Below are positions 19,748 through 49,083 of a stretch of 64,000 bases of DNA, piece after piece (the first letter of the stretch is position 1; the number at the start of each line of letters is the position of its first letter). This DNA comes from a bacterium (lineage in GTDB: Bacteria > Hydrothermota > DG-26 > JAUXAN01): assembly GCA_030619885.1 (NCBI GenBank), contig JAUXAN010000001.1:11474-75473 (forward strand), written 5' to 3'. The notes under the pieces are model-generated. The model was not told where the DNA came from, ran no database searches, and worked only from the letters and a program-made list of their open reading frames with translations. The position numbers were made by a program, and so were the translations under genes.

Positions 19748-19981
19748 CTATGCTTTACATTGTATCAAAAAAATGATTATAGTCAAGCAAAAATTAATCA
19801 CAGAGGACACAGATTACCTTCTCACCAAATACCTCGTCTTCCTTGACCAAAACTTGTGTAATTGATACAATGGAAAACGGAGGAGAGAATTGGGAAGAGG
19901 ATGGATTGGAGAGAAAAAAAAAGTATTTTCGTATCAAGCATCTTAAAATCAATTATTAGTTAGCTGAGTTGTCACATTCTA

Positions 19982-20612: not shown

Positions 20613-20621
20613 TTTAAAATC

Positions 20622-21509: not shown

Positions 21510-21520
21510 TTCTTCACTCT

Positions 21521-24394: not shown

Positions 24395-25583
24395 ACTGAT
24401 CCCTCAGTGAGTTCAAAATCCCTACTGCAATTCTCTGCCCTAAGATCGGCGGCACAGCATTTGCTACTTGTTGTTGTTGGTAACCAAGTGGACCGTAGAA
24501 AATATAGCAGTCAGGAAAAGATTGAAGCCGTGCTGCTTCTCTTACAGACAAACCTCTGTCTTGGACAGGATGGATAAGCATGCACTTCCTAAAATTACTT
24601 ATAACTATTGAAGGCTCGTCCCACTTTAGCCTCTTATATATTCCGCTGTGGCAGTTATTTTTGTTTTTATAGTTCTTCATTAGATAGCATGGAATATTTT
24701 CCCAGTTTCCACCCTGCGGGATAAATCGATATCGTTTGAGCACAAGATTAGTATTCTTGCTTACAAGGTTATTCCCGCAGTATGAGTTCCCCCAATTGGC
24801 ACGCATTCTTTTCTGGTAATCAGTTAAAGAGCCGTTAGACTTTGCATATCTCATAAGGTCCGTTTGATTTCCATTTTCAAGCACCGGAAGATCTGAAATC
24901 GCTTCCTTAACTGTAATGCAAGATCTTTTCCCATCACCGTGAGTTGCATTTGAGAAGATGTAGTCCGCACCAATTCTGTTTCCTATTATAAAGATTCTGC
25001 GCCGAATTTGAGGAATTCCGTAGTCAGCGGCATTTAATATTTTAGATTTGCAAAAGTATCCCACATTTTCTAACTCCCCAATTATCGCATTTTTTACCAA
25101 GCCGCCTTTAAAGCTATTCATGCCAGCAACATTTTCCAGCAACAACCACTTAGGCATTAAACCCTTTATTAATCTAATAAATTCTTTATACAAGTGATTT
25201 TCAGAATTGTCAAGAGTACGAGTCCGCATGTTTGAAGTTGAAAACCCTTGACACGGCAGACCACCCATTACAATATCAATTTTTCCTCTCTTAACTCTCA
25301 GTATCCTTAATATTTCTAAGGGATTCAACTCTGCAATGTCTTTCACTAAAACCATCTTTTTTTTGCTTCTCCTATTTTTTATGTAAGTTTCAGCACTGCA
25401 GAGCTCTTTTTCTACAGCAAGTAAAACTTGGAATCCTGCTTCTTCAAAACCTAAAGAAAGCCCTCCTGCTCCAGCACAGATATCAACTGCAGTTGGTTTG
25501 TCCTTTCCCTTTTTCACCTTGGCTTCTCCTTTTCTTTTGAGTGAGTATCCGCATAAGACTTGCATATTGAAATAATAGGGCAT
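24387..25583 (-). CDS. DNA (cytosine-5)-methyltransferase
   Basis: Motif I is DICAGAGGLS, motif IV GGLPCQGFS, motif VI ENV, motif VIII QIRRRIFIIG and motif X REAARLQSFPD. The true start may be the ATG 6 codons downstream. The gene overlaps the 3' end of the upstream glycosylase gene. Confidence 0.9.
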   Translation of the reverse strand: MPYYFNMQVLCGYSLKRKGEAKVKKGKDKPTAVDICAGAGGLSLGFEEAGFQVLLAVEKELCSAETYIKNRRSKKKMVLVKDIAELNPLEILRILRVKRGKIDIVMGGLPCQGFSTSNMRTRTLDNSENHLYKEFIRLIKGLMPKWLLLENVAGMNSFKGGLVKNAIIGELENVGYFCKSKILNAADYGIPQIRRRIFIIGNRIGADYIFSNATHGDGKRSCITVKEAISDLPVLENGNQTDLMRYAKSNGSLTDYQKRMRANWGNSYCGNNLVSKNTNLVLKRYRFIPQGGNWENIPCYLMKNYKNKNNCHSGIYKRLKWDEPSIVISNFRKCMLIHPVQDRGLSVREAARLQSFPDCYIFYGPLGYQQQQVANAVPPILGQRIAVGILNSLRDQYE

Positions 25584-26212
25584 TCACTACATAATGGATG
25601 TCTTTTTTTACAGATTAGTGCACTGAAGTCTAACAGTGCCCAGTTAAACTTTTTGGGATTTCTTTGGGGTACAAGTTTTGATGCGGCATCCCACAATAAC
25701 TTGTCATTTCTTGGTCGATTCTTCTCAGACTTGATGCCAAACACCCTATCAAGCACCCTTATAACATTTGTATCTACAATAGGCACCCTTTTATTGAAAC
25801 CAAAGCATAAGGTTGCTGAGGCAATGTATTTTCCTATTCCTTTGAGTCTTAAAAGTGCTTTTTCCTCATCTGGTATACTCCCTTTATACTGGTTGAGTAT
25901 CTGTGAACCCATTTCTGTTAATCTCGATGCTTTATAATGCAAACCTAATGGTCTAATTGCTTCCCTCACTGCAGGAACATCCGCATCTGAAAGCTTTTCT
26001 GGAGTTGGACAGTAGGTCGTCAGTTTTTTATAAACTGGTTGTACTTTTTCTACATTCGTTTTCTGAAGGAGCACTTCAGCAAGCAAAATCTTGAATGGAT
26101 CTTTTTCTCTTCTCCAAGGAAAGTCTCTGTTGTTATTTTTATACCACATAAAAAGTTTCTTCTGGAATTCCCTTATCTTATTTAACTCGACTTTTGTTTC
26201 TATCTTAAGCAT
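25514..26212 (-). CDS. HhH-GPD DNA glycosylase with 4Fe-4S cluster (EndoIII/MutY family; Mig-like T:G mismatch glycosylase paired with the C5-MTase)
   Basis: The helix-hairpin-helix LLRLKGIGKYIASATL, the VDTNVIRVLDR element and the C-terminal Cys4 cluster CKKRHPLCSECPIISIC are present. Confidence 0.8.
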   Translation of the reverse strand: MLKIETKVELNKIREFQKKLFMWYKNNNRDFPWRREKDPFKILLAEVLLQKTNVEKVQPVYKKLTTYCPTPEKLSDADVPAVREAIRPLGLHYKASRLTEMGSQILNQYKGSIPDEEKALLRLKGIGKYIASATLCFGFNKRVPIVDTNVIRVLDRVFGIKSEKNRPRNDKLLWDAASKLVPQRNPKKFNWALLDFSALICKKRHPLCSECPIISICKSYADTHSKEKEKPR

Positions 26213-26219
26213 TATTCAG

Positions 26220-26468
26220 TCAGTGTTTTCCCATCCCTAAAATCCAATCCCTCTTCACTACCCCATTTCTTATAGCAGAGGAGCGACTTATTGAATAGGA
26301 ACGGATTATGTTGGCAAATGTAAAGTTTTTTTTGAAGCCTATCCTTTCCCCCTGAAGCATTAAAGACTTTGGCGTAGACACTAAAATCCTTTGATAATAA
26401 CTTCCATTTATCTCAATTTTGCTTCCGGGGTTCAAAACCTTGTGCGTATCCTTTGATATTGTTTCCAT
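26220..26468 (-). CDS. small hypothetical protein (82 aa)
   Basis: It is first in the operon and ends 8 nt before the glycosylase start. No motif is recognised. Confidence 0.4.
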   Translation of the reverse strand: METISKDTHKVLNPGSKIEINGSYYQRILVSTPKSLMLQGERIGFKKNFTFANIIRSYSISRSSAIRNGVVKRDWILGMGKH

Positions 26469-26637
26469 ATCCTTGAAAAGCTTATAAATAGTATAAACTT
26501 TTTTTTACTTTTGTCAAGTATTTTTTGCGAAAAAAATTCGGTTGCGCATATTCTGATCTGATTTCAGAAATTCAAATTTAACAATAGTTTAGATACAAGT
26601 GCGGAACTTGGTTTTTTTGAAGCAATAAAATCAATCA

Positions 26638-29496
26638 TTATCTTTCTATAATTTTGATTTCTTCCTCTGTCAAGCCATAGAGTTTATAGGCGAGGGAGTC
26701 TATTTGCTGATCAAGGAGGTCTATCTGAGTCTTATACAACTTTTTGTCCTGCTCCAATCTGGCAGAATGATATTTTTTCTGCAACTCCAACATTTGCTCC
26801 ACCATTGCCACCAAATCATCGTGCATCTTCTTCTCGTGAGGATTGGAAAAATCAATGGTGTGAATGGGGAGTTGCTCAATCTGATAGCCTTTAATCTTGG
26901 GAAAGGTTTGCTTAGTATCACTGCTCGTTTTTAGAAAATAGAAAGCAATAAGTGAAGAGGTAAGTATCCCAAGCAGGTATTTGGGTGAGTATACTTCACT
27001 TGTTTTAGGGAGGAGCAAATAGATTGACTGGTCTGCATAGAAACCTTCTTGATCAAGGGAACAATAGATTCTTTTGCCCATTACTTGACGAATCAATAAT
27101 TTTGGAAAAATCTGAAAAATCCATTCTTCCCTGAATGCCTGACTACTATACTTACTTTCCAGTTTTTTATCATAACAAACCCACAGATTATTCCAGTTAA
27201 TATGGAAAGGCACTATATTTCTACCAAGAAGAAATTTATGGTAACGATTATCTTCGTAATCACTTGAACATAACTCCTTACGAATTTTCATTCCATTTCG
27301 TACTTTAACCAAATTAGAAAGCTTTGTACTTACTGTTGAAATCTTCTGGATAAGAGCAATCGCCTGAGTATCAATGGCTGTATTGAAAGTAAAACTATTT
27401 TGAGAGGTCAGATACTTTTGAGGCAGGATATTGTGTGGAGTTGTGACTTGTTGTTGCTGTGCTGCCAAGCACATGCCTATTGCAAAATTATGATTATGTC
27501 TTATGGTTTGGCTTTTTTCTCTTTGGACTACAATTATATTTGTGTCCACAGCAACATTTTTGAAAATACCTTCTTTTAAATCAACAATTATTTCTATGCA
27601 GGTATTCTCTACTATGAACTGCCGAATCTTTTCGCTGTCTTTATTGGTTAATATGCCATTAGGAATGATGAAGGAAAGACGCCCACTGTCGCGGAGTAAT
27701 TTAATCCCTTTCTCTAAGAAAAGATAATAAGTATCAAGAAGACGACTTGCTGAAAAGAAATGCTGCATATAATAGGTCTTGTCATTTTGTGGAATATTAC
27801 GACTTCTTACATACGGTGGATTTCCTATTACTACATCAAATCCACCGTTCTGAAAAATGTTAGGGAAGGCAGTTTTCCAGTCAAAAACATTAATGCGTCT
27901 CATCTCGGCTTCATCAAAAAGAGTTGTTTGCTGTGTGTCGTAAAAATCGGGACTAATCAGGGAGTTTCCACATTTGATATTGTTTGATAGATCGGGCAAG
28001 AGCTTCAACTGAGTATATCTGAATAGCTGTCTGGTTGACTCCTCAGTTTCTCCCTCTAAAAGTTTGAGAAGGAGAGAAAGTTTAGATACCTCCACTGCCT
28101 GAGTATCTATGTCCACTCCAAATATATTATTGAGAAGAATTCGCTGTTTCTCTGCAATAGTTAATTGAAAACTATCTTTTTCTGTTTGTATAATTTGACC
28201 TTTCTTTAATGCCTTCTTGCGATTTTCATTTTTGGAATACCAGTCCAGGTGATAGTTCAAGAGACATTGATAGGCACTGAGAAGAAAACTTCCTGAGCCG
28301 CAGGCAGGGTCAAGGAGCTTTATCTTATCAATCTGTTTTGGCGTTTTGCCTTTTATAATTTTTCCGACAGTGTTTTTAACAATATAGTCAACGATGTATT
28401 TGGGGGTATAATACACACCTCCCGCCTTTTTTACTTCAGGCTTTTCTTCTACCTTCACCTGATGAGCAGGGGTTAGACGAATGGTCTTGCCCAGAAATTG
28501 TTCGTAGATGTTTCCAAGAATCTCTACATCTAAAACAGAAAATTCATAAGGGGATTCTGGATAGTATACGGATTTTAGAATTTCCTTTATTATTTCATCG
28601 TCAATGGAAAGAACTGGGGTAATCTCGTCTTTTTCAAAATCAAACAATCCGCTGTTATATTTTTTGTCGGAGTGAAGGAATATCTCCATCAATCTTCTGT
28701 ATGTGTTGGTTCCGTTTAGGAGTATCTTAAGTTTCCCGTAGTCCTCAATCTGTCTGGCTTCTGCTATACGCAGGAATATAATTCTATCAACAATTTTCTG
28801 GACAGCAAAATTCAATTCATACAAGGACAAACTCTTATTCCGAAGGGCGATATTCTTTGCAAGTTTCTCCCTCCACCTATCAATAAGTTTCAAAAATTCT
28901 TTATCTACCTCTGATGTGCCCCTTTTATTCTTGGTTGACTCTATATATCGGTCAAAACTGCCTATTAGAATGCCCTCTTTTGAGAATGTATCATATATGA
29001 AATCAAAATTTTCGAGATAATCTTTATATCCACAGTAGAAAATGCGGACACAGGAAGCCAAATCCTTTGCTGTGGGTTTAATTCTTGTGTCATACACGGA
29101 GAATTCCTCAAAGTCTGTAAGAATAGAGAGGGGTAATTTGGCAGTGTAGGCATACCGCCTTAACTGGTATGCAGGCGATACTTCGGACTTGAGGACAATA
29201 GATGGTCTTTTTGCCTCCACGAAGAACTTTCGTATCCCACCGATACGGAAGGAGTAATCGGGCGCCTTATGCTTGCCTGTAATAATAACCTTTGCCTCTC
29301 TTACAACCTCACGATACTGCTCGGCATAACCCTGTTTGTTAGCAACATCCCAGCCCAGGCTTTCAAAGAATGGGTCTATAAAATCGGCACGGGTATTTGC
29401 CTCATCGTAATCCCGCCTTTTGTATTGAGAGATATTTTCTCCAAACCTCTGTATCAACTTTTTAATCTGTCCTTTTGCTTCTATTTTCTTGTCCAT
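26638..29496 (-). CDS. Type IIG/IIL restriction-modification enzyme (MmeI-like fused endonuclease + N6-adenine methyltransferase + TRD)
   Basis: The N-terminus has ANTRADFIDPFFESLGW and PDYSF...FVEAKR (a PD-ExK endonuclease). The MTase has motif I LDPACGSGSFLL and motif IV VIGNPPYV. At 952 aa it is comparable to MmeI-family enzymes. Confidence 0.85.
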   Translation of the reverse strand: MDKKIEAKGQIKKLIQRFGENISQYKRRDYDEANTRADFIDPFFESLGWDVANKQGYAEQYREVVREAKVIITGKHKAPDYSFRIGGIRKFFVEAKRPSIVLKSEVSPAYQLRRYAYTAKLPLSILTDFEEFSVYDTRIKPTAKDLASCVRIFYCGYKDYLENFDFIYDTFSKEGILIGSFDRYIESTKNKRGTSEVDKEFLKLIDRWREKLAKNIALRNKSLSLYELNFAVQKIVDRIIFLRIAEARQIEDYGKLKILLNGTNTYRRLMEIFLHSDKKYNSGLFDFEKDEITPVLSIDDEIIKEILKSVYYPESPYEFSVLDVEILGNIYEQFLGKTIRLTPAHQVKVEEKPEVKKAGGVYYTPKYIVDYIVKNTVGKIIKGKTPKQIDKIKLLDPACGSGSFLLSAYQCLLNYHLDWYSKNENRKKALKKGQIIQTEKDSFQLTIAEKQRILLNNIFGVDIDTQAVEVSKLSLLLKLLEGETEESTRQLFRYTQLKLLPDLSNNIKCGNSLISPDFYDTQQTTLFDEAEMRRINVFDWKTAFPNIFQNGGFDVVIGNPPYVRSRNIPQNDKTYYMQHFFSASRLLDTYYLFLEKGIKLLRDSGRLSFIIPNGILTNKDSEKIRQFIVENTCIEIIVDLKEGIFKNVAVDTNIIVVQREKSQTIRHNHNFAIGMCLAAQQQQVTTPHNILPQKYLTSQNSFTFNTAIDTQAIALIQKISTVSTKLSNLVKVRNGMKIRKELCSSDYEDNRYHKFLLGRNIVPFHINWNNLWVCYDKKLESKYSSQAFREEWIFQIFPKLLIRQVMGKRIYCSLDQEGFYADQSIYLLLPKTSEVYSPKYLLGILTSSLIAFYFLKTSSDTKQTFPKIKGYQIEQLPIHTIDFSNPHEKKMHDDLVAMVEQMLELQKKYHSARLEQDKKLYKTQIDLLDQQIDSLAYKLYGLTEEEIKIIER

Positions 29497-29754
29497 CTCT
29501 ATATTTTTTCCTTATTAGAATTTTTACCTATCTTAATTCATCTATCTTTAAAAAATCAATATTTCAAAACCACAATCGCAAGGCTGAAGCCTTGCCCTAC
29601 AATAATTCGGCAGATTCCGTGTATTATTTGGGATAAATATAATAATTTAGTTTCAGAAGTCAAGTTTTTTTCTTGAGATCTGGGTGGAACATATGTAATA
29701 CTATTCAGCAGAAGGGGGTGGAGAGATGAAGTATAATGAAAGAGGTGTAAACGC

Positions 29755-30504
29755 CTAGAGCCTCCCTTCCAATATAACTCCATATCCTTTAATTCTTAGA
29801 TATATAAAAAGAGTTACAAGCAGACCAAAGGAGAAAAAAATAAGATAGTCCCAAAATCGTAGTTTAGAATCTATATAATAGGTTCTGTGAGGAGTAAAAC
29901 CCTTTCCTTCTAAAGCCATACTAAGATTGTCGGTATTCCTTATTGCAGAGACGAATATAGGTATGATGAGTGGGACATATTTTTTCACCCTTTTTATTAT
30001 GTTACCACTCTCCAAATCGAGACCTCTTGACCGTTGTGCCTGAACTACCGTGCTGGTAGTGCCAAGAAATGTAGGAACTAATCTGAAAGCCATGGAAAGG
30101 GCAAAACTAATTGGGTAAGGTAGACCAAATTTCTTCAATCCCCAACATAATTCTTCAATCATAGTTGTAGATAAAAATAGGATTCCTGCCACTATCATCA
30201 CATCAAGTCTTATTCCCATTCCGATGCCATAAAGTACCGATTTTAGTCCTCTTCTCAAAAAAAGTGGCCAGAGCACACTGCAAAATAGAAAAAGCAGGAT
30301 AATTACAAGTCTAAATTTAAAGATGTTTATCATTGATTTAGAAAGGATGACAGCTGTTATGATAAATAAGAATAGTGTCAATAGATATACTGGATGGTTA
30401 AAACTCATACTAATGATAAAAATTGAAAGCAGTCCAAAAATTTTTGTTCTTGGATCCATACGGTGAATTACAGTCTTTTTATTTGTGTATAAAAAAAGTC
30501 CCAT
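29755..30504 (-). CDS. ecfT: ECF transporter transmembrane (T) component, EcfT/CbiQ family
   Basis: It has 5 to 6 TM helices and CbiQ-like sequence (RMDPRTKIFGLLSIFIISM). It lies next to the duplicated ABC ATPase. Confidence 0.75.
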   Translation of the reverse strand: MGLFLYTNKKTVIHRMDPRTKIFGLLSIFIISMSFNHPVYLLTLFLFIITAVILSKSMINIFKFRLVIILLFLFCSVLWPLFLRRGLKSVLYGIGMGIRLDVMIVAGILFLSTTMIEELCWGLKKFGLPYPISFALSMAFRLVPTFLGTTSTVVQAQRSRGLDLESGNIIKRVKKYVPLIIPIFVSAIRNTDNLSMALEGKGFTPHRTYYIDSKLRFWDYLIFFSFGLLVTLFIYLRIKGYGVILEGRL

Positions 30505-34517: not shown

Positions 34518-34916
34518 CTACCATATATAACATAGTACTTCGCCGCCTATACCAAATTTCCTACAATCTCTATCTGTCAAAATGCCCTTTGAAGTTGATA
34601 TGATTGCTATACCTAATCCACTAAGAACTTTGGGAAGCTCTCTTTTTGATTTGTATATTCTTAAACTCGGCTTTGATACCCTCTTCAAACACGTTATTGG
34701 CGACTTACCTTCACTGTCATATTTCAACTTTATATTTATTGATCCATGTATCTCGTCCTCGTTGAATTTGAAAGAGTCGATAAATCCTTCATTTTCTAAT
34801 ATTTGAGTAATCTCCAATTTTACCCTCGAAGAAAGGACATTAACCTCTTTATGATACGCACTTATTGCATTTCTAATCCTCGTGAGATAATCTGCAATTG
34901 GGTCATGTGTCGGCAT
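34518..34916 (-). CDS. rpsH: 30S ribosomal protein S8
   Basis: The sequence [11 protein letters not shown]...[14 protein letters not shown] matches S8. Confidence 0.95.
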
Positions 34917-34937
34917 ATAAACCTCCTTGCCCTTTTT

Positions 34938-35123
34938 CTACCAAGTAGCCTTTCTTACCCCGGGGATTTCGCCTTTTAGAGATAGTTCTCTGAAGCATAT
35001 CCTGCAGAGTCCAAATCTTCGCAGGTATCCTCTCTGTCTCCCACATCTTGAGCATCTGAAATATCTCCGAGTACTGAATTTAGGCTCTTTTTTTGATTTC
35101 ACCCACAGTGATTTTCTTGTCAT
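34938..35123 (-). CDS. rpsZ: 30S ribosomal protein S14 type Z (zinc-binding)
   Basis: It is 61 aa with a [20 protein letters not shown] zinc ribbon. Confidence 0.95.
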
Positions 35124-35132
35124 AGTCTAATC

Positions 35133-35765
35133 CTACTTCCTAAAGGGCACCCCCAATGCTGATAGAAGTTCATGACTTTCCTCATCTGTTCTGGCACTTG
35201 TCACTATCGTTATATCCATACCGAATATTTTCTTTACTTTATCGATCCTGATTTCGGGAAAGATCGTATGTTCGGTTACACCGAATGTAAAATTTCCTCT
35301 CCCGTCGAAAGAATCGCGCGAAACTCCTCTGAAATCTCTGATGCGCGGCATAGAAAAATTTACCAGCCTATCAAAGAATTCGTACATCCTCACACCCCTT
35401 AGACTAACTTTACAACCTATGGGGTTGCCCTTCCTCACTTTGAATTGAGAAACTGCCTTTTTGGCTCTTGTAATCGCAGGCTTTTGTCCTGTGATTATTG
35501 AGAGGTCAGCAGATGCGATATCGAGCAATTTCGGGTCTTGAGTAGCTTGCCCTACCCCCATATTGACAACTATCTTGACCAATTTCGGGACCTGATGCAC
35601 ATTCTTATACGAAAATTTCTTCCTCAGAGAAGGGATAACCTTCTCTTTGTAAAAGTCTTTTAATCTTGTAGACCTGTGCACAATATCTTTTTGGGAAAGT
35701 GCCTGTGCTTCTGGTTTAGTTTCAGTCCGTGTTTCAGTCTTGGTTTTACCTTTTGCCTTTGCCAT
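35133..35765 (-). CDS. rplE: 50S ribosomal protein L5 (with ~35-aa Lys/Thr-rich N-terminal extension)
   Basis: The L5 core is [19 protein letters not shown]...; the N-terminus [22 protein letters not shown] is an extension. Confidence 0.95.
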
Positions 35766-35767
35766 AA

Positions 35768-36082
35768 TTAATCTTCTATCATCTCCTCACATCGTTTACA
35801 AATTCGCACCTTCCGTTTGTCTTTTAGAATTTTGACACCGACTTTAGTATGCTTTCCGCACTTGGGGCATATTAAAGATAGGTTCGAAAGGTGAACGGGT
35901 GCTTCTTTTTCTATTATTCTCGATTGCTCGCCTGATCTTCTGGCTTTGGAGTGTCTGTGTATGAAATTTATCCCCTCAACTATCGCCTTCTTCTCTTTAG
36001 CAAAAAGTTTGAGGATTTTACCCCGCTTACCCTTCTCATCGCCTGAAATCATAAGAACGGTATCACCCTTCCTTATCCTCAT
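35768..36082 (-). CDS. rplX: 50S ribosomal protein L24 with C-terminal C4 zinc-ribbon extension
   Basis: A KOW domain ([22 protein letters not shown]) is followed by a C-terminal [11 protein letters not shown]...ICKRCEE. Confidence 0.9.
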
Positions 36083-36450
36083 CAGATAACCTCACTCGCT
36101 AAAGATATTATCTTCATAAACTTACGGTCTCTCAGCTCCCTGCCTACAGGTCCGAGAATTCTTGTCCCCCTAGGTTCATATCTCTCATCCACAAGCACAC
36201 ATGCATTGTCATCGAATCTAACATACGACCCATTGCTCCGCTGTTGCTCCTTCTTTGTTCTAACTATTACAGCCTTCGTCACATCACCCTTTTTAATCTG
36301 GGTATTGGGTATTGCATCCTTTATTGTCACAACTATTATATCTCCTATCCTCCCATATCTTCTCTTCGATCCTCCAAGCACCTTTATACACATAGCAGTC
36401 TTGCCACCCGTATTATCGGCAACTCGCAGTCTTGTTAATTCCTGAATCAT
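36082..36450 (-). CDS. rplN: 50S ribosomal protein L14
   Basis: The sequence [17 protein letters not shown]...GPVGRELR matches L14. Confidence 0.95.
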
Positions 36451-36462
36451 CTAACATCCTAT

Positions 36463-36666
36463 CAATTCAGACACTGATTACCATCTCAGAATCCGTTGCG
36501 CAGCATCCCATACGGGTCTGCGACCGTATGGAATGGACAGATACTCACTGAGCAAATATCTTTCTTTTTATCCCTATATTTATAATCTGTGTTCACCCCG
36601 TTAGATAGTAAACATCTTACGGGGTTCATCAGTGTAAATCTGTGTATACTATCTGAATCATAATTC
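36463..36666 (+). repeat. intergenic repeat family Rep-A, copy 3, containing an inserted CCCCGTTAGA hairpin; fills the whole rpsQ-rplN spacer
   Basis: Head CAATTCAGACACTGATTA, the core palindrome and tail CTATCTGAATCATA are all present. The hairpin at 36596-36624 is CCCCGTTAGATAGTAAACATCTTACGGGG. Confidence 0.85.
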
Positions 36667-36915
36667 CTACTGTGTTGATTTCAGAATGCCGGCAACACGC
36701 CATCGCTTTAGCTTACTCAACGGTCTTGTCTCTACTATCCGTACCTGGTCACCCACTTTACACCTGTTTTCTTCATCGTGAGCGTAGAATTTCTTTTTTG
36801 TTTTAATAGTCTTTTTATAAAGAGGGTGGATATGTCTCCTTTCTACTATTACTATTACAGTCTTATCACATTTATCTTTGACAACAACGCCTATTCTACT
36901 TTTCCTTTTCTCCAC
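36667..36915 (-). CDS. rpsQ: 30S ribosomal protein S17
   Basis: The sequence [27 protein letters not shown] matches S17. Confidence 0.95.
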
Positions 36916-37108
36916 GTTTACTCCTTCCTTTCTCTTTCAACAATGTCTTTATCCTTGCAATCTCCCTTCTCTGTGTTCTCAATCTTAAGGGATTTGTTAG
37001 TTCCTGTGTCACATGTTTAAATCTCATATTAAATATATCTTCTATCAATTCAAAAAGTCGAGAACTCAATTCCTGTTCAGTCAAATCTCTCAGCTCTCCT
37101 GCTTTCAT
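36896..37108 (-). CDS. rpmC: 50S ribosomal protein L29
   Basis: It is 70 aa; the sequence [17 protein letters not shown]...NMRFKH matches L29. Confidence 0.9.
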
Positions 37109-37518
37109 ACCATCTTCCTCGACACGAATCTGGTACGAATGGGCAATTTCGATGCACCCAGCCGAAACGCCTCCTTGGCCTGTTCTTCAGGTACACCTTC
37201 CAGTTCAAACATCACTCTACCGGGTTTTACAACAGCGACCCAGTATTCGGGTGGGCCTTTACCCTTACCCATTCTCGTCTCCGCAGGTTTTTTGGTTACA
37301 GGTTTATCCGGAAATATTCTTATCCAAAATTTACCAGCCCGTTTAAGAAATCTTGTTATAGCAACCCTTGCAGCCTCGATTTGACGGGCAGTTATCCATC
37401 CAGGTTCAAGTGATTGGAGTCCATACTCACCAAAATCCAGTTTTCTCGCTCCTTTCGATTTTCCTCTCATCCTTCCCCTCTGCTGTTTGCGATACTTCAC
37501 TTTCTTTGGCATCAACAT
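37105..37518 (-). CDS. rplP: 50S ribosomal protein L16
   Basis: The sequence [19 protein letters not shown] matches L16. Confidence 0.95.
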
Positions 37519-37523
37519 CTTTC

Positions 37524-38159
37524 TTATCTTCCTTTCTTCAAAACATCGCCTTTATATATCCATACCTTCACACCTATACATCCGTATGTAGTAATGGCGG
37601 TAGAAGTTGCATAGTCTATATCTGCACGCAGGGTATGGAGAGGAACTCTGCCCTCTTTGTACCATTCCATACGGGCGATTTCAGCGCCAGCAAGTCTACC
37701 CTTACATACAACCTTGATACCCTGTCCACCGAATCTCATAGCCTGTGAGACAGCCTTCTTCATAGCCCTTCGAAAAGAAATCCTTGCCACGAGTTGCCTT
37801 GCTAAATTATCTGCAACTAACTGGGCATCCAGTTCGGGCGTCTTCACTTCATATATATTGAGATCAATTTCCTTATCCGTTATATGTTTCAGTTCTGTCT
37901 TCAACCTCTCGACTTCAGTTCCTTTCCTGCCGATGACGATAGCAGGTCTACCTGTATGGAGGTTCACGATAACCTTCTTTGAAGTCCTTTCTATCTCTAT
38001 TTTCGAAACAGATGCCCTTTTATGTCGTTTCCTTATATACTTTCTTATGAGTGCGTCTTCTGCAATGAATGAAGCAAAATCTTTCTTTGTGAACCATCTT
38101 GAACTCCAGTTCTTCGTTATGCCCAGTCTAAAACCTATTGGATGTGTTTTCTGTCCCAA
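37524..38159 (-). CDS. rpsC: 30S ribosomal protein S3
   Basis: The sequence [23 protein letters not shown] matches S3. Confidence 0.95.
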
Positions 38160-38172
38160 GAGCTCCTCCTTT

Positions 38173-38520
38173 TCATTTTTTCTCTGCTACTATTATCGTT
38201 ATGTGACTTGTTCTCTTCCTTATCATCGATGCTCTGCCATATGCCCTCGCCCTGTATCGCTTCATCGTTGCCCCTTGAGTTACCCTCGCATCTTTCACAT
38301 ATAAAGAGTCCATATCCAGTTTATCCTTGCCAACGATGTCCACCGCATTCGCTGCTGCCGATCTCACCGTCTTTTCTATAAAGCGGCTCCCTCTCTGGGG
38401 CAAAAATTTCAAAATAGAGAGCGCTTCTGACACAGGCTTCCCATTTATTAGCTTGGCAACCTCATTCGCCTTTCTCGACGATATCCTTACGAACCTTGAA
38501 ATTGCCCTTGCTTCCATCAT
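38173..38520 (-). CDS. rplV: 50S ribosomal protein L22
   Basis: The sequence [25 protein letters not shown] matches L22. Confidence 0.95.
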
Positions 38521-38813
38521 CTTTTCCCTCTTATCCTCGTAGCTTTTTCAGCCTTGGTTCCAGAGTGTACACGGAAAATTCTTGTGCTAGAGAATTCTCC
38601 CAATTTATGTCCTACCATATTTTCCGTTATATAGACTGGCAGAAACTTCATTCCATTATGAATGGCGATAGTGTGTCCCACAAAATCCGGCGTTATGGTT
38701 GAACGTCTCGCATAGGTACGGAGCACCTTCTTCTCGTTTTTTTCATTTAACTGAAGTATCCTTTTCAATAACTTCAGATCTACATAAGGACCCTTCTTAA
38801 CAGACCTCGGCAT
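38517..38813 (-). CDS. rpsS: 30S ribosomal protein S19
   Basis: The sequence [12 protein letters not shown]...[11 protein letters not shown] matches S19. The start is set at the second ATG, which is preceded by GGAGG. Confidence 0.95.
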
Positions 38814-38835
38814 TTGAACCTCCACTTTTAATACT

Positions 38836-38992
38836 GCAATTCAGACACTGATTACTATAGATATTCACTGATTAAATATCTTCCTTTTTATCTTAATTTC
38901 CTTGTCAAAATTTATCAATAATCCTACTTCTATGTTTATGATCTATGCACATCTGTGTAAATCTGTGTCTACTGTTTGAATCACTGTTTTAG
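38836..38992 (+). repeat. intergenic repeat family Rep-A, copy 4 (lacks the ~55-bp palindromic core module); fills rplB-rpsS spacer
   Basis: It has CAATTCAGACACTGATTAC|TATAGATATTCACTGATTAAATATCTTCCTTTTTATC...CTACTGTTTGAATCACTG. Confidence 0.8.
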
Positions 38993-39001
38993 TATGTAAT
39001 C

Positions 39002-39832
39002 TCATTTTCTTCTCTTAACTATATACTTATCCGATAGTTTCTTCTTTCTCGTTCTCAAACCCTTGGCGAGAAGCCCATCGGGTGAACAGGGGTGTCTCCC
39101 CCCTGATGCCTTGCCTTCTCCACCACCCATAGGATGATCTACAGGGTTCATCGCTACTGCCCTCGTTCTTGGACGGAAACCCAGCCATCTCCTTCTTCCT
39201 GCCTTTCCATAAGAGATAGTGCCGTGCTCTATATTACTCACCTGACCAATCGTTGCTAGGCACTGAAGGGGTATGAGTCTTATCTCGTCCGAAGGCAGTT
39301 TTATATGTGCAAATTTTCCCTCTTTGGCTAATATTTGTGCACCTGTCCCAGCCCCTCTTACCAATTGACCACCTTTTCCTCTCCGAAGTTCTATGTTAAA
39401 GATCGGCATCCCAATGGGTATATCACTCAACGGGAGCGTATTTCCAATCTTAATGGTAGAACCTGGTCCGGACTGAACAACATCCCCCTTTCTCAAACCA
39501 TCGGGTGCAATGGTGTATCTCCGCTCACCATCTCTGTATAGTAGAAGGGCAATCCTTGCAGAACGATTTGGGTCGTATTCTATAGACTCAACCTTTGCAG
39601 GTATGTCAAACTTGTCCCTTTTGAAATCTATCACTCTGTATCTCCTTCTATGTCCACCGCCTCTATGCCTGGTAGTAATCCTTCCCTGATTATTCCTACC
39701 GCCTTTCTTTCTCAAGGATGAAAGAAGCGGTTTATGTGGTCTCTTCTTTGTAAGTTCAGAAAAGTCAGAAATATGCGTGAATCTTAAAGAGCTGGTAGTT
39801 GGTTTAAACTTTTTCATATTATGCACCCTCAA
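39002..39832 (-). CDS. rplB: 50S ribosomal protein L2
   Basis: The sequence [19 protein letters not shown]...HPMGGGEG matches L2. Confidence 0.95.
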
Positions 39833-40103
39833 ACAGTTCTATTCTGTGATCCTCCTTCAATGTGACAATCGCCTTTTTCCAATCGGCTCTCTTTCCTTCA
39901 AACCTACCGAGTCTTTTCACCTTTCCTTTTACCCGTTGTATATTTACATCTTTGACCTTGACTTTAAATATCTCTTCCACTGCCTTTTTCACCTCTACTC
40001 TATTCGTGTCGATTCGAACAGAGAAGAGGTATTTATTCTGTTCCCTCAACTTCGTTGCCCTCTCAGTTATTATCGGTTCCAGTATTAATTTTCTCGGATT
40101 CAT
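39819..40103 (-). CDS. rplW: 50S ribosomal protein L23
   Basis: It is 94 aa; the sequence ITERATKL...KVKDVNI matches L23. Confidence 0.9.
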
Positions 40104-40726
40104 ACAAATATCTTCTTCATACTATTCAATGCACTTTCTGTAAAGACGATAAATTTGTTCTTCAACACGGTGTAGCAATCGAGTTTCCATGCGTCAGTCA
40201 GTTGAAGCCATGGTATATTTCTGCCAGAGAGGAAGATATTTCTGTCATATTTGGACAAGACTATAAGGGTAGGCTCCAATTCAAGATTGAAATTTTTTAA
40301 AACTCCTACCAGCTTCTTCGTCTTCGGTTCTGAAAACTTGAAATCCTCAATAACTCTAATTTTCCGGTCTGCACATTTTTCTGACAATGCGGAAAAGAGT
40401 GCAAGCTGTCTAACTTTCTTTGGTAATTTCCATCCAAAATCCCTCGGTTTTGGTCCAAATGTGACACCACCACCAACCAGGATTGGTGAAGACTTTGTCC
40501 CCTGTCTTGCCCTGCCGGTTCCCTTCTGTCTATATGGCTTCGCTCCTCCACCTCTGACCTCAGCTCTCCCCTTCGTCGATGCCGTCCCTCTTCTCCGGTT
40601 TGCAAGGGTAGATCTGCATACTTCGTAAACAGCCACCTCATTGGGAACTATGGCAAATATCTCCTCTGGCAGATGTGCCACACCCTTATTCTCTCCAGAA
40701 ATTGTTCCTATATCTATTTCAGGCAT
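40100..40726 (-). CDS. rplD: 50S ribosomal protein L4
   Basis: The sequence RRGTASTKGRAEVRGGGAKPYRQKGTGRARQG matches L4. Confidence 0.95.
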   Translation of the reverse strand: MPEIDIGTISGENKGVAHLPEEIFAIVPNEVAVYEVCRSTLANRRRGTASTKGRAEVRGGGAKPYRQKGTGRARQGTKSSPILVGGGVTFGPKPRDFGWKLPKKVRQLALFSALSEKCADRKIRVIEDFKFSEPKTKKLVGVLKNFNLELEPTLIVLSKYDRNIFLSGRNIPWLQLTDAWKLDCYTVLKNKFIVFTESALNSMKKIFV

Positions 40727-40758
40727 AAATATTTACCATATAAAATAAAAAATTTTTG

Positions 40759-41370
40759 TCAAGTTTTTTTGATCAAAAGATAACCATTTCTCGCACCGGG
40801 AACTGCTCCTTTAATGAAGAGACGATTATTCTCGATGTCAACTTTTACAACGGTCAAATTTTTAATACACGTCTTGTCACCGCCATATCTGCCGGGCAGT
40901 CCTTTGCCTTTCCATACCCTACCAGGGTCAGTTGTTCCACCGATTGAACCTGGAACAGCGTGGGACATAGACCCGTGTGATTCTGGACCACCTGAATATC
41001 CGCATTTTTTAACCACACCGCTAAACCCTCTACCTTTTGAAAAACCTGTGACTCGAACCTTCTCTTCTTCTTTAAACAACTCGACCGTTAGTTTCTGTCC
41101 GCACTCGAAGTTTGCAATATCTTCCACTCTAAACTCAGTGAGCTTCCGTTTTGGAACCACTTTTGAGTTTTTAAAATGCCCTGCATAAGGTCTATTGGGT
41201 TTCTTCTTATCTTCAAATCCCAACTGTATTGCGTTGTAACCCTCCTTTTCTTTCGTCTTTTTTTGGATGACATAGCATGGGCCACAAACTACTACGGTTA
41301 CGGGGACCACATTGCCATTATCATCGAAAATCTGCGTCATATTCAACTTTTTACCTATCAATCCTAACAT
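40759..41370 (-). CDS. rplC: 50S ribosomal protein L3
   Basis: The sequence MLGLIGKKLNMTQIF matches L3. The start is set at the internal ATG, preceded by AAAAGGAGAG. Confidence 0.95.
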   Translation of the reverse strand: MLGLIGKKLNMTQIFDDNGNVVPVTVVVCGPCYVIQKKTKEKEGYNAIQLGFEDKKKPNRPYAGHFKNSKVVPKRKLTEFRVEDIANFECGQKLTVELFKEEEKVRVTGFSKGRGFSGVVKKCGYSGGPESHGSMSHAVPGSIGGTTDPGRVWKGKGLPGRYGGDKTCIKNLTVVKVDIENNRLFIKGAVPGARNGYLLIKKT

Positions 41371-41395
41371 ATAGCTCTCCTTTTTCAATTATTAG

Positions 41396-41462
41396 CAATT
41401 CAGACACTGATTACCACCCTGCACTTATGCATAAGTGCAGGGTCTACTATTTGAGTCACAGT
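41396..41462 (+). repeat. intergenic repeat family Rep-A, copy 5 (short form: head + perfect palindrome CCCTGCACTTATGCATAAGTGCAGGG + tail); rpsJ-rplC spacer
   Basis: It has CAATTCAGACACTGATTACC + ACCCTGCACTTATGCATAAGTGCAGGGT + CTACTATTTGAGTCACAG. Confidence 0.75.
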
Positions 41463-41495
41463 ATATAACAATCTTCCCCAATTCTCCTTTTCTCC

Positions 41496-41804
41496 TTACA
41501 ACTTTATTTCCACATCAACGCCTGTAGGGAGATCCATTTTCATCAATGCGTCTATAGTCTGTGGTGAAGATTCAGTGATTTCAATCAACCTCTTATGAAT
41601 TCTGATTTCAAACTGTTCCCTCGACTTTTTGTCAACATGTGGTGAACGGAGAACCGTATACAGAGATCGTTTAATCGGGAGCGGGATTGGGCCAGAAACT
41701 TTGGCACCTGTTCGTTTAGCCGTCATAACGATCTCCTTCGTTGACTGGTCTAGAATTGCATGGTCGTATGCCTTGAGTTTTATTCTGATTTTATCTTTTG
41801 GCAT
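41496..41804 (-). CDS. rpsJ: 30S ribosomal protein S10
   Basis: The sequence [12 protein letters not shown] matches S10; the ORF is 102 aa. Confidence 0.95.
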
Positions 41805-43871
41805 CTATCCCCCTTGAAATTTTTCTATTATCTTGTTCTGAATCTCCTCTGGTAATTCTTCATATTTTGCAAACTCCATCGTATAGGTTGCTCGTCCCTG
41901 TGAAATTGACCTCAGCCCAGTTGCATATCCAAACATAGTTGAGAGAGGACACATCGCATCTACCGCCTGTCCCTCAAGTTTCGAGAAAATGCTTAAAACT
42001 CTGCCTCTCCTTGAACCTATATCGCTTATTATCTCACCTAAAAATTCTTTAGGGGTAACAACTTCGAGTTTCATAATCGGTTCTAAAAGAAGCAATTTTG
42101 CCGATTTTAAAGCATTCTGGATTGAAAGGGATGTTGCAAGTTTAATTCCAATCTCCGATGTAGAATCATCGTAAGAGATGGATAAGAGGGTGATCCGAAC
42201 ATCTGTCATCGGGTAGCCAGCAAAAAATCCTGTTTCCATAGAGTCGTGAACGGTTCTGGACACAGATTCAACTATTTCATTTGGTAAGAATTCCACATTA
42301 TTTTCGAAGATAAAACCGCTGCCCCTTTTAAGTTGAGATATTTTCAATTCAACTTCAGCGTGTTCCTTTCGTCCACCAATTTCTTTATCAATCTTTGCAC
42401 TACCAGAGGAGGTTTTAGATATTGTCTCTCTATATGCCACCTGAGGTTTACCAACATTTGCCTTCACCCCGAAGTCTTTTGTCATTCTCTCCACCAGGAC
42501 CTCGAGGTGTAACTCACCCATACCTGCTATGATGGTCTGTCCTGTCTCATCATCTGTTCTCACCTCAAAAGTTGGGTCCTCTTCCTCCATCTTTTTCAAA
42601 CCGTATTTCAGTCTTTCCTCATCCGCTTTAGTCTTCGGTTCAATAGAAATGAATATGACCGGTTCGGGAAATTTCATAGACTCGAATATTATGGGGTGAG
42701 ATTGGTCACACAGGGTAGAGCCTGTTTTACTGTCTTTAATTCCCACAAAGGCACATATATCACCTGCAGAAACTTCGTTCAGTACCTCCCTTTTATTCGC
42801 ATGCATCCGCAAGATTTTAATGACTCTCTCCCGTTTCCTATTATTTGCGTCGTAAACAATGGAACCGTGATTTATCTTACCTGAGTAGACCCTTACATAA
42901 GAGAGTCTTCCAACATAGGAGTCAGAAGCAATTTTAAAGAGCAGACTCGAAAATGGTTCACCATCCTGGGTTTTCCGAAATTCTTTTTTGAGTGTGGCTG
43001 GGTTAACACCTTCGATTGGTGGAATGTCAGTAGGGGATGGCAAAAAATAGCAGATAGCATCGAGTAATTTCTGGATACCCTTATTTTTAATGGCAGAACC
43101 ACAGAGGACAGGAACCAATTTGCACGCAAGGGTAGCTTTCCTAATACTCCGTCTCATCTCTTCTTCAAGAACAGGTTTGCCGTGTAGAAATTTTTCGGCT
43201 ATCGAATCATCAAAATCTGAAATCGTCTCAAGCAAGAGCTCTCTATAGTGATTAAGTTCCTCTATATTATCTTCTACCTCAGATTCGGTAAAAGTGAGAC
43301 CTTCTGTAGTATCTTTCCAGAGATAGGTTTTCAATCTAATGAGGTCGACAACACCTTCAAAGCTATCTTCAGAGCCTACAGGGATCTGAATTGGACATGC
43401 CTCGCCTGTTAATTTTTCATTGATCATATCAACGGTTTTATAAAAGTCGGCGCCAATTCTATCCATCTTATTTACAAACCCTATTCTTGGTATACGGTAT
43501 CTATCCGCCTGTTTCCATACAGTTTCTGATTGTGGTTCTACTCCACCGACTCCGCAAAAAAGAGCAATCGCACCATCCAACACCCTTAAAGAACGCTCAA
43601 CCTCTGCGGTAAAATCCACATGTCCTGGGGTATCTATTAAATTCATTGTATGGTCCTTCCAGAAAAATGTGGTAGCAGCGGATGTAATGGTGATCCCCCT
43701 CTGTTTTTCCTGCTCCATCCAGTCCATAGTGGCCGAGCCTTCGTCTACTTCGCCCATACGATGTATCTTTCCTGAGTAGTAGAGCATCCTTTCGGTTGTA
43801 GTAGTCTTCCCCGCATCTATATGAGCCATTATACCGATGTTTCTCACTTTTGTTAACTCTGACTCTCTCAT
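41805..43871 (-). CDS. fusA: elongation factor G
   Basis: The G1 motif [21 protein letters not shown] is present and the length (~690 aa) fits EF-G. The ATG is taken at codon 4 of the ORF-track frame, whose first codon is GTG. Confidence 0.95.
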
Positions 43872-43892
43872 CCTTAACACCTGATTTTTCTT

Positions 43893-44363
43893 TTACCATC
43901 TAAAATGAGCAAAAGCTCTATTTGCTTCAGCCATCTTGTGAGTATCTTCTCTTTTCTTTATTGCAGCCCCTTCTTTCTTGTTGGCTCCAATAATTTCAGA
44001 AGCCAGTCTCTCTGCCATCGAATGTTCTGGTCTCGACCTTGCCGAGTACAATAGCCAGCGGATGGCTAAAGAATTTTTTCTATTCATTCTCACCTCTACA
44101 GGCACCTGGTAAGTCGCCCCGCCTACTCTTCTCGATCTAACCTCAACCACAGGTTTCACATTATTAACTGCCTGTTCAAAAACAGGGAACGGATCCGTAT
44201 TCAGTTTTGACTGAATCAAATCCATAGCAGTATAAAAGATCTTCTCAGCCACAGATTTCTTGCCACACCACATAATAGAGTTAATGAATTTTGTAACCAG
44301 AACAGAATTATACTTCGAATCTGGCAAAACTTTTCTTCTCTCTGCCCTTTTTCTTCTTGCCAT
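43893..44363 (-). CDS. rpsG: 30S ribosomal protein S7
   Basis: The sequence [18 protein letters not shown]...[20 protein letters not shown] matches S7. A GGAGG site lies upstream. Confidence 0.95.
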
Positions 44364-44470
44364 AAAACCTCCAAATTTGCGAATTTGATAATATAATTAA
44401 ATAATAAAGGATGTCAAGAAAAATCGAACCAAATGTTAAGTAAAAGATTGTATCTTGATGCTTGCAAGTC

Positions 44471-44500
44471 TTGACAGGCTGACATTTCTTGATCTATAAT
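44471..44500 (+). promoter_or_regulatory. near-consensus sigma70-type promoter (TTGACA-18 bp-TATAAT) on + strand with no downstream + strand ORF
   Basis: TTGACA is at 44471-44476 and TATAAT at 44495-44500. The downstream gene, thpR, is on the opposite strand. Confidence 0.35.
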
Positions 44501-44622
44501 GAAAATATAAACCATAAGATTAACCACAGAAAATAGAAATTAAGAAATTTATCCATTCAGGTTTCACAATTTCCATTTTCTTATTTTCTCTTTAGTATCT
44601 TGTGTTAATCTGTGGTTTCCAG

Positions 44623-46436: not shown

Positions 46437-46448
46437 TGAAAAAAGTTT

Positions 46449-46930
46449 AATAGGACGCAGATTTCCACAGATAAACGCAGATTTTTCATGACTTCCTCAA
46501 ATTATCAAATGCCTTGCGCTTAACTTCTGGTTCAGGACCAAAGTTAAGTAACAAACCAACTTCTATCTCAGTTGCTTTCAAGTAATTCAATAATTGTGCT
46601 TCATGCCCTTCCGCCAGACTTTTTGCTGATTTAATCTCAACTATTACCTTCTCATCTACTAATATATCTGCAAAATATTCCCCAATTATTTGTTCTTCAT
46701 AATATACTTTGACTGGAAATTGTGGAGTAGCAGTAAGACCTAATTTTCTCAGTTCTATTAACATTGCATTCTCGTACACTTTTTCTAAGAATCCATAGCC
46801 GAGTGTATTATAGACTTGGTAAAAAGCTTTGATGATTTTCTCGGTTATATCTTTATACTTAAAATCCGGGAAATCTGCGTTCACCCCGTTAGATAGTAAA
46901 CATCTAACGGGGTTCATCTGCGTCCCTATT
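46449..46930. mobile_element. TIR-flanked cassette (14-15 bp inverted repeats AATAGG(G)ACGCAGAT) carrying a GxxExxY gene, inserted 25 bp from tRNA-Val
   Basis: The left inverted repeat is at 46449-46462 and the right at 46916-46930 (ATCTGCGTCCCTATT). A CCCCGTTAGAT hairpin lies at the right end. A second ACGCAGATTT copy is at 46466-46475. Confidence 0.55.
46486..46917 (-). CDS. GxxExxY family protein (PD-(D/E)XK nuclease superfamily)
   Basis: The GFLEKVY (G-x-x-E-x-x-Y) and VDEKVIVEIKS motifs are present. The start codon and first ~14 codons (MNPVRCLLSNGVNA) are encoded by the hairpin repeat. Confidence 0.8.
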   Translation of the reverse strand: MNPVRCLLSNGVNADFPDFKYKDITEKIIKAFYQVYNTLGYGFLEKVYENAMLIELRKLGLTATPQFPVKVYYEEQIIGEYFADILVDEKVIVEIKSAKSLAEGHEAQLLNYLKATEIEVGLLLNFGPEPEVKRKAFDNLRKS

Positions 46931-46954
46931 TACAAAGTGACTTATATCACAAAA

Positions 46955-47029
<75 letters not shown>

Positions 47030-47166
47030 TTTCTTCATTCTACAATTCAGACAAAAATTGTCAAGGTAAAAGAAACCACGAATCACACTCACCCCGTTAG
47101 ATAGCAAACATCTAATTTTCAATAGTCACTTCGGGCTATTTTTTGTATACATTAGAAATAAAGACT

Positions 47167-47400: not shown

Positions 47401-47552
47401 TCTGACCTCCTTTATCGGTCATTTTTTGTTTATTTCCATCCGCTGACAATAATTAAAGAACACTTGCGCACAGCGTTCTACAAATAATTTCCATGCGGAT
47501 CCGTAGGGATAGGGGATCCTGAGATGTCAATCTGTGGTTTGAATTTGTATTT

Positions 47553-49010: not shown

Positions 49011-49083
49011 GGTTGCATTATACCTTCTCCAACTTCCCCGTCAAGTAAAAATTAACCACAGAGAAAAAAGAATAAAAATGGGG

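Follow-up and report, generated by a model that had tools for sequence, protein, structure and literature searches.

The 64-kb stretch of DNA analysed here (called the window; contig JAUXAN010000001.1 of assembly GCA_030619885.1) contains a ribosomal-protein gene cluster, three spacers of which are filled by copies of a short intergenic repeat, Rep-A. The initial annotation of the window had listed five copies with a common head and tail. We searched for the head, (C/T)AATTCAGACACTGATTA (18 nt), and obtained five matches at up to one mismatch, where 0.07 were expected by chance: 9498-9515 (minus strand), 16733-16750, 36463-36480, 38837-38854 and 41396-41413. The tail, CTACTRTYTGARTCAYAG, gave five matches at up to two mismatches (expectation 0.67), every one paired with a head. 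In the alignment of the five copies, the ends are conserved and the interior is variable. Thus, the pattern matches and the alignment bear out the five copies and their positions. A relaxed search did not find a sixth copy in the window; a match near 1087, within a coding region, was discarded as spurious. The copies, and the genes that adjoin those in the cluster (assigned by NCBIfam), are as follows.

9365-9515, minus strand: copy 1, in the spacer between a gene for a methyl-accepting chemotaxis protein-like product and a PASTA-domain gene, both on the plus strand
16733-16926, plus strand: copy 2, in the spacer between a HEAT-repeat gene and a GAF histidine-kinase gene
36463-36666, plus strand (head to tail): copy 3, fills the rpsQ-rplN spacer
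38837-38986, plus strand: copy 4, in the rplB-rpsS spacer; a "basic" copy without micro-insertions
41396-41461, plus strand: copy 5, in the rpsJ-rplC spacer; a 66-nt deletion derivative that consists of head, perfect palindrome (41416-41443) and tail
36082-36450, minus strand: rplN, adjoins the head of copy 3
36667-36915, minus strand: rpsQ, stop codon 3 nt from the tail of copy 3
38517-38813, minus strand: rpsS, adjoins the head of copy 4
39002-39817, minus strand: rplB, adjoins the tail of copy 4
40759-41370, minus strand: rplC, adjoins the head of copy 5
41496-41804, minus strand: rpsJ, adjoins the tail of copy 5 and lies directly 3' of fusA

With gene starts as called in same-species contigs, the rpsQ-rplN, rplB-rpsS and rpsJ-rplC spacers are 216, 188 and 125 bp long; these are the lengths reported earlier, and the copies do fill them. 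The start codon of rplN is 13 nt from the head core AATTCAG of copy 3 (12 nt from the C at 36463), and its Shine-Dalgarno (SD) sequence, AGGA, is placed between copy 3 and the ATG. Wherever a same-species contig spans the site of one of the five copies, the copy is there; for the three operon copies, this place is inside the S10/spc operon. Two further observations were made at the rplN start. Reverse-complementing the Rep-A tail gives exactly the sequence ATGATTCAG of this start. In L003 and L054 (labels of this type denote contigs or loci fetched from genome and metagenome collections), at the equivalent of window ~36441-36459, 19 nt (AATTCCTGAATCATCTAAC) stand twice in tandem in one strain; this duplication covers the rplN start codon and the SD spacer and adjoins the head of copy 3.

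The five copies share one orientation relative to their flanking transcription units. The inverted copy at 9.4 kb, which lies between plus-strand genes, keeps this orientation relative to its own transcription unit. Therefore, the description of the copies as co-oriented stands, while their description as antisense to the genes reflects a naming convention only.

[quoted passage not shown] Exact-protein look-ups led to metagenome contigs (L001-L006) that are 98-99% identical to the window. When the head pattern was scanned in the genome and metagenome collections, 34 stretches were returned from each. After de-duplication, metagenome contigs of the window's own population contained about 33 distinct Rep-A loci. 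Seven further copies were found in the fragmented metagenome-assembled genome (MAG) binchicken_co140_94 and one in a MAG labelled Planctomycetia. A lack of copies outside the window had been named as an argument against mobility; there are many additional copies. Among the genome-collection matches, 24 of the 34 were in Breznakibacter, with one more in a Bacteroidales MAG. These correspond to a 20-mer internal to an unrelated insertion sequence (IS); because there is no similarity beyond the 20-mer, we regard them as a chance match multiplied by the copy number of the IS. Matches in IMG/VR were rejected as chance matches of the same kind, and a BLAST search of plasmids gave no Rep-A match.

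We take the element to be about 105-260 bp in size; the complete copies (n=22) are 62-374 nt long. Indels of 17, 18 and 19 nt separate the Rep-A sequences of different strains and therefore rule out a conserved open reading frame (ORF). Two kinds of small ORF, a mini-ORF starting from the ATG or GTG of the tail and a 46-aa ORF of copy 4, were rejected, their frame or start codon not being conserved. The termini can be written roughly as TTGC-AATTCAGACACTGATTA ... TAATCAGTGTCTACTATCTGAATCA-CAG. They contain inverted repeats, AGACACTGATTA/TAATCAGTGTCT, with 12-nt arms that are 100% identical, and an outer pair, ATTCAGA/TCTGAAT; in copy 4, the terminal inverted repeats extend to 30-nt arms at 70% identity. 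As read from the copy sequences, a sub-terminal motif, ACAC(T/A)GAT, occurs three times at each end with a spacing of 11-12 bp. These motifs are probably transposase-binding sites.

In six of the 22 complete copies, A/T-rich direct duplications of 7-11 nt flank the element close to its ends (ATTTTAATCAT, AGTAAAAAAG, TGAAAAATT, TTCATATT, ATTATCCT and TCATAAT). In the window, the 8-nt ATTATCCT belongs to copy 1 and the 7-nt TCATAAT to copy 2. As a control, left and right flanks were re-paired at random in 2000 permutations and duplications of at least 7 nt near the ends were counted. The mean was 0.34 and the maximum was 3; none of the 2000 permutations reached six.

The nearest relatives in which the operon could be compared (L075-L077, with an L4 identity of 53-55%) have an L2-S19 spacer of 25 or 2 bp, their S17 and L14 gene calls overlap, and no Rep-A copy was found in their operon loci. 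The long spacers are therefore not common to relatives; long spacers of unrelated sequence in related genomes had been named as a further argument against mobility. Rep-A is short and non-coding, has terminal inverted repeats and target duplications, and occurs in dispersed copies, with empty sites in the nearest relatives. The suggestion that MITE-like repeats are tolerated inside an essential operon is thus supported by the inverted repeats, the duplications, the ~33 loci, the copies in a distant MAG and the empty spacers.

The position of Rep-A relative to genes follows a strict rule. In 19 of 19 co-directional contexts, the head points to the 5' end of whichever gene or tRNA comes next (two-sided p ~4e-6), and six divergent contexts and five partial MAG copies also agree. 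Every assessable locus has, beyond the head, a same-strand gene or tRNA that begins at a distance of 3-220 nt. For operon spacers, the distance from the head to the start codon is 3-28 nt, and the stop codon of the upstream gene is within ~40 nt of the tail. At other loci, the head is located 10-30 nt upstream of a CTTGACA -35 box. Downstream of three copies there are tRNA genes (Trp, Ala and Cys). Copies 1 and 2 are 7 kb apart and have opposite orientations, each of which matches the direction of its own genes. Therefore, the rule tracks transcription and not the replication arm. The window has about 55 gene junctions, and only a handful of them are convergent or divergent; therefore, nearly any insertion falls within a transcription unit.

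The strand that reads from head to tail is pyrimidine-rich (GC skew -0.16, AT skew -0.09). Therefore, the transcribed strand is purine-rich, like the neighbouring coding strands: the skews of the operon coding strand are +0.21 (GC) and +0.17 (AT). On the head-to-tail strand only, a weak hairpin (-2.8 kcal/mol) is followed by a T-run, TTTCTTTTT. No terminator was found on the gene strand of the copies. The sole terminator-like match, the palindrome of copy 5, is on the plus strand, which is not the gene strand, and a terminator acting on the genes was rejected on this ground.

Several observations weigh against the MITE reading. Sixteen of the 22 complete copies, including the three operon copies, have no flanking duplication, and where duplications are present, neither their length (7-11 nt) nor their offset from the conserved termini is constant. 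Neither the window nor the ~80 fetched loci yielded an autonomous partner, which would be a transposase gene bounded by Rep-A ends. Strict orientation is unusual for DDE-type MITEs, and the candidate polar signal is weak. Copy 4, whose interior module also occurs in copies of the distant MAG, is 85-92% identical in nucleotide sequence to L017, L030 and L032 across two lineages, whereas orthologous proteins of the window population and MAG binchicken_co140_94 are only 55-62% identical; this high identity fits either recent horizontal transfer or functional constraint. Finally, 10 of 33 downstream genes are related to translation (rplC, rpsS, rplN, rpmI-rplT, alaS, serS, tgt, tRNA-Trp, tRNA-Ala and tRNA-Cys), which simple tolerance does not predict; the apparent enrichment would have p ~1e-4 against a background of 7%, a figure that was assumed and not taken from this genome. 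Candidates for an autonomous element had been sought among copies with no tail within 6 kb. These were solo or truncated heads beside ordinary genes, without a transposase, and were rejected.

The high identity between lineages and the apparent translation bias, together with the orientation, would also be expected if Rep-A were a domesticated element that acts in cis on the downstream gene, as an RNase III or RNase E processing site, a 5' stabilizer or translational enhancer, or an array of regulator-binding sites. The distance of 3-28 nt between head and start codon, the presence of the five window copies in all same-species contigs spanning their sites and the conservation in a lineage with ~58% protein identity are in line with this idea, and comparable long terminal stems of Correia elements in Neisseria are RNase III substrates (PMC10969869). 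The structural data do not favour it, and they do not demonstrate the structured RNA, RNase site or ribosomal-protein mimic that the initial annotation had given as its second alternative. In the whole window there was no Rfam match at gathering thresholds, and in the 36-42 kb spacers there was none at E<=1; thus, no covariance model of a known ribosomal-protein leader RNA matches. The initial annotation had proposed folding the copies on the gene-sense strand. Copy 3 has a fold z-score of -3.1 on this strand, and the opposite strand folds equally well (-3.0). Variable positions in the stems leave G-U wobbles on either strand (~15 versus 8 in the central hairpin and 6 versus 4 in the terminal stem, events that are not independent), so that there is no consistent strand preference, and no compensatory double change was found in the central hairpin or the terminal stem. 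Moreover, the size range is wide, the interior is freely swapped or deleted, micro-insertions make the sequence differ among strains and show no sign of constraint, and the nearest relatives do without Rep-A. The translation bias itself depends on the assumed background. We therefore judge domestication to be unlikely.

The orientation might instead be imposed at insertion, by an HUH/Y1 transposase of the IS200/IS605 type or of the type associated with repetitive extragenic palindromic (REP) sequences (REP-associated tyrosine transposase, RAYT), or by an integrase directed by a motif located at the 5' ends of genes. This would account for the 19 co-directional contexts and for the way in which copies 1 and 2 follow gene direction across strand switches within 7 kb. 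Rep-A is also full of hairpins, and the population does possess a frameshifted IS200/RAYT-like gene (L065 1491-2299; motifs YHVFAR, MPTHIHL and YIHLNP). However, this gene is flanked by REP hairpins of a different sequence, AATCCCACCCCnGGGGTGGGATT, and no RAYT homologue was found in the window, so that this lead was rejected. Terminal inverted repeats and target duplications are not features of IS200/IS605 or REP elements. Because Rep-A has both, with flanking duplications of 7-11 bp, it differs from palindrome-associated elements (PATE) derived from IS200/IS605 and from REP or REPIN sequences. Furthermore, no conserved target motif was evident next to the Rep-A ends, where only A/T richness was seen. 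An orientation dictated by the inserting enzyme thus seems quite improbable. A mobile promoter or insulator, in which the head would supply an outward promoter or the -35 box of a hybrid one, is hardly credible, even though the head always faces a gene start, its tip (TTGCAA or TTGCAG) resembles a -35 box and resident CTTGACA boxes are found 10-30 nt downstream of several copies: a consensus scan found no conserved sigma-70-like promoter on the gene strand of the copies, while resident promoters of the window match 11-12 of 12 positions and the organism uses canonical TTGACA/TATAAT, and the start codon is often 3-13 nt from the head, so that a transcript started from the tip would begin downstream of the ATG.

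Returning to the MITE reading, we propose that a DDE-type transposase supplied in trans would insert Rep-A into A/T-rich DNA at gene 5' ends. The copies are found in the short untranslated stretch that separates a stop codon from the next SD sequence or start codon, or just upstream of a -35 box. Among long strings of co-directional genes, the orientation that gives a purine-rich transcript without a hairpin and U-run would survive, because the opposite one would be polar on downstream genes; polarity would presumably arise by intrinsic or Rho-dependent termination, and such insertions would be purged by selection. A near-consensus sigma-70-type promoter is located upstream of rpsG.

44390-44417, minus strand: TTGACA-16-TATATT, upstream of rpsG

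This promoter is the likely source of the transcript of the rpsG-fusA-S10-spc operon, which would read through copies 5, 4 and 3 in this order. The operon copies must be co-transcribed with the operon. Read-through would add the hairpins of the terminal repeats and palindromes to the polycistronic mRNA; the transcribed Rep-A RNA may be processed, with putative cleavage at these hairpins. Passive co-transcription, with retention solely in the non-polar orientation, is the most likely state of the operon copies. The inserted copies would then have become landing pads for, or conversion partners of, small units of 18, 19, 17 and 29 nt.

As a MITE, Rep-A is unremarkable in kind; what is unusual is its place, and its bacterial lineage is nearly unstudied. 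The most conserved bacterial operon absorbs three transposon-derived inserts of 66-204 bp between its cistrons, and this tolerance informs how much polarity and translational coupling ribosomal operons need. The strict orientation rule amounts to a natural experiment on the orientation-dependent polarity of intergenic inserts in long co-directional gene strings. Worth following are this rule, the strain-variable micro-insertions and a possible preference for translation genes. A practical consequence is that Rep-A repeats break short-read assemblies of this lineage: same-species contigs end at the repeats, right at gene boundaries. Among the contigs reached by exact-protein look-ups, no case of presence versus absence between strains was obtained, since they stop within the repeats.

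The initial annotation had called the copies modular. This is right but incomplete: the modules are secondary insertions, nested within the copies and differing from strain to strain. The elements of the stack in copy 3, and the states found at the three susceptible loci of the window, are as follows.

36484-36537, plus strand: micro-insertion stack of copy 3 in state C (18 + 19 + 17 nt), between ...GATTACCA and CAGATAC...
36508-36531: palindrome CCATACGG-GTCTGCGA-CCGTATGG, an inverted repeat whose hairpin recurs in other sequence contexts
36592-36628: GC-rich 29-nt hairpin CCCCGTTAGA...TCTTACGGGG, including TTCA on both sides, a nested insertion into GTGTTCATCAG of copy 3
Copy 1: state C in the window and in L080/L081, state A in L074
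Copy 2: state C in the window, state B in L001, L002, L004 and L043
Copy 3: state C in the window, state B in L001 and L005, state A in L002, L003 and L006

No insert interrupts ...GATTACCA|CAGATA... in the basic copies, which are copy 4, L055, L061 and all those from MAGs. In state A, an 18-nt unit, TCTCAGGATCCGTATGGA, is inserted at ..TTACCA^CAGAT... In state B, 19 nt more (TGCGCAGCATCCGTATGGA) follow CCGT and include a second copy of an 11-nt core. State C has a further 17 nt, which supply the left arm and loop of the palindrome CCATACGG-GTCTGCGA-CCGTATGG. This palindrome, noted earlier in some of the copies, is in copies 1-3. The different perfect palindrome reported for one copy is that of copy 5 (14+14 nt, 41416-41443), and the inserted CCCCGTTAGA hairpin is in copy 3 at 36596-36624. 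The 18-nt unit was also found in a AACCACAGAT-ended repeat and, at the equivalent site, in L050's inverted right end; its site can be summarized as ..TTAC(C)A^C(A/T)GAT... The 29-nt GC hairpins (CCCCG...CGGGG) carry TTCA on both flanks, and the basic copies L055 and L061 read uninterrupted GTGTTCATCAG. The same hairpin recurs in another repeat family, at 46884-46912.

States at fixed loci differ among strains that are 98-99% identical, in at least five independent assemblies, and the window strain has state C at all three susceptible loci. Contigs often end exactly within the stack, as would be expected if one sample holds several states. At copy 1, a single-nucleotide polymorphism is linked to the state change, which hints at gene conversion between copies. 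The state changes may have arisen by insertion of units or by gene conversion. In two Rep-A copies of MAG binchicken_co140_94 (L010 and L020), heptamer tandem arrays (TGTTAGC repeated, and a TAGGCTG-like unit) are located directly after the head region.

Small dispersed repeats (SDR) are the closest known counterpart of these micro-units. Elhai et al. reportedly described SDR in 2008 as units of ~17-33 nt nested in minitransposons of Nostoc and other cyanobacteria; reportedly, they have specific short insertion sites, form nested self-stacks, and one unit is present in several unrelated host repeats. The Rep-A micro-units share these features: one unit, a specific short site, several host contexts and nesting in itself. 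Heptamer tandem repeats are embedded in some copies, as in the two MAG copies above. Rep-A differs in its non-cyanobacterial host and in its unit sequences, and its state varies at the same locus between 98-99% identical strains. This variation points to ongoing change, of which gene conversion is another possible cause. It is doubtful, but conceivable, that the units of 17-19 nt and 29 nt are currently active ultra-small mobile elements that invade specific sites inside Rep-A copies, and that the orientation-locked backbone is a mobile 5' module preferentially kept before translation genes. If either point were true, the problem of the smallest mobile DNA could be tested with existing metagenome reads. 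The strain-variable micro-insertions provide a second independent system, after cyanobacterial SDR, for the spread of 17-30 nt repeats.

The Rep-A backbone resembles other MITEs: Chunjie of Geobacter uraniireducens, Correia elements (CREE) of Neisseria and the enterobacterial repetitive intergenic consensus (ERIC, or intergenic repeat units, IRU) are likewise small and non-coding, with inverted repeats, target duplications and many intergenic copies of variable size. Chunjie can be located inside an operon without breaking it, and Correia and ERIC sequences are co-transcribed, the stems of their terminal repeats being substrates of RNase III or RNase E (PMC10969869). No sequence similarity was found between Rep-A and these three. 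Rep-A also differs in that three copies are located in the S10/spc operon and in that the duplication length is apparently variable (7-11 bp). Correia and ERIC sequences occur in both orientations, whereas every assessable Rep-A copy has a single orientation relative to the downstream gene.

Modularity, hairpin modules and a location in transcribed intergenic spacers are shared with the pneumococcal BOX element (boxA-boxB(n)-boxC) and with the bacterial interspersed mosaic elements (BIMEs/REP) of E. coli. BIMEs are generally known as modular, hairpin-forming intergenic repeats. In contrast to BOX and BIMEs, Rep-A is bounded by true terminal inverted repeats with duplications at its flanks, and its modules are inserted into a MITE backbone and are not linear boxes. 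The REPIN/RAYT system shares with Rep-A the short GC-rich palindromes dispersed between genes, and a RAYT-like gene is present in the Rep-A population, although not in the window. The nested hairpins of Rep-A differ from the REP sequences that flank this gene, and the backbone has inverted repeats and target duplications.

Beyond its own population, the lineage is isolated. The best non-self L4 protein is 55% identical and the best elongation factor G 57-58%, and many other phyla are at least as close as named neighbours such as Zixibacteria. The order of the ribosomal-protein cluster is rpsG-fusA-rpsJ...rpsH, after which it stops and a gene for a Memo/AMMECR1 protein is next. The cluster (34518-44363) is unusual: rpsJ directly follows fusA with no tuf, and no rpsL precedes rpsG. 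After rpsH, the last gene of the spc part, come the Memo/AMMECR1 fusion, queT and a set of ABC transporter and CbiQ genes of the energy-coupling factor type. In the relative L075, the cluster likewise breaks off after rpsH.

Other repeats were observed in the window. At 46446-46931, a second family, with terminal inverted repeats TAATAGG(G)ACGCAGAT and sub-repeats of ACGCAGAT, surrounds a single gene for a 143-aa PD-(D/E)XK protein (PF13366, PDDEXK_3). This arrangement could be a nuclease-carrying mobile cassette. At the same site, L054 has a 257-bp non-coding version, the interior of which matches the copy at 49127-49371. A non-coding member of this family is located at 49076-49439, between thyX and a peptidase S49 gene, and its modules CCCCGTTAGA and GGATCCGTATGGA are common to Rep-A. 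Inverted-repeat matches (56 nt at 88% and 35 nt at 91%) pair the region 63542-63685 with 49175-49361; this region probably represents a further member of the second family, and another CCCCGTTAGA hairpin is at 63577-63607.

A third repeat, at 44471-44620, lies upstream of rpsG. Its interior is common to Rep-A L041, L056 and L072, and its ends are AACCACAGA/TCTGTGGTT. A perfect TTGACA-18-TATAAT at 44471-44500 (plus strand) is directed away from rpsG. At 47037-47064 (minus strand), there is a repeat of the ...AACCACGAAT...CTTGAC type, with related repeats at 10309, 51701, 59997 and 2864. It carries a strong promoter-like sequence, TTGACA-16-TAGAAT, before the tRNA gene at 46955-47029, and 10 nt of the promoter spacer (47043-47052) are identical to the Rep-A head (CAATTCAGAC).

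No same-species contig contains the 10-kb segment at 19797-29755, which has a lower GC content (0.36-0.37). Encoded here are an Eco57I/MmeI-type restriction-modification enzyme, a C5 DNA methylase, an HhH-GPD glycosylase, a split thyX, and an ORC-CDC6-like protein together with an HD-CE protein. The segment, which lies between cbiQ and the HEAT-repeat gene, has the look of a defence island specific to this strain. Downstream of thyX, at 47490-47509, there is a cluster of palindromes of the TCCATGCGGATCCGTAGGGA type. L054 has ~220 extra nt of the same kind of palindrome; therefore, this is another site that varies between strains.

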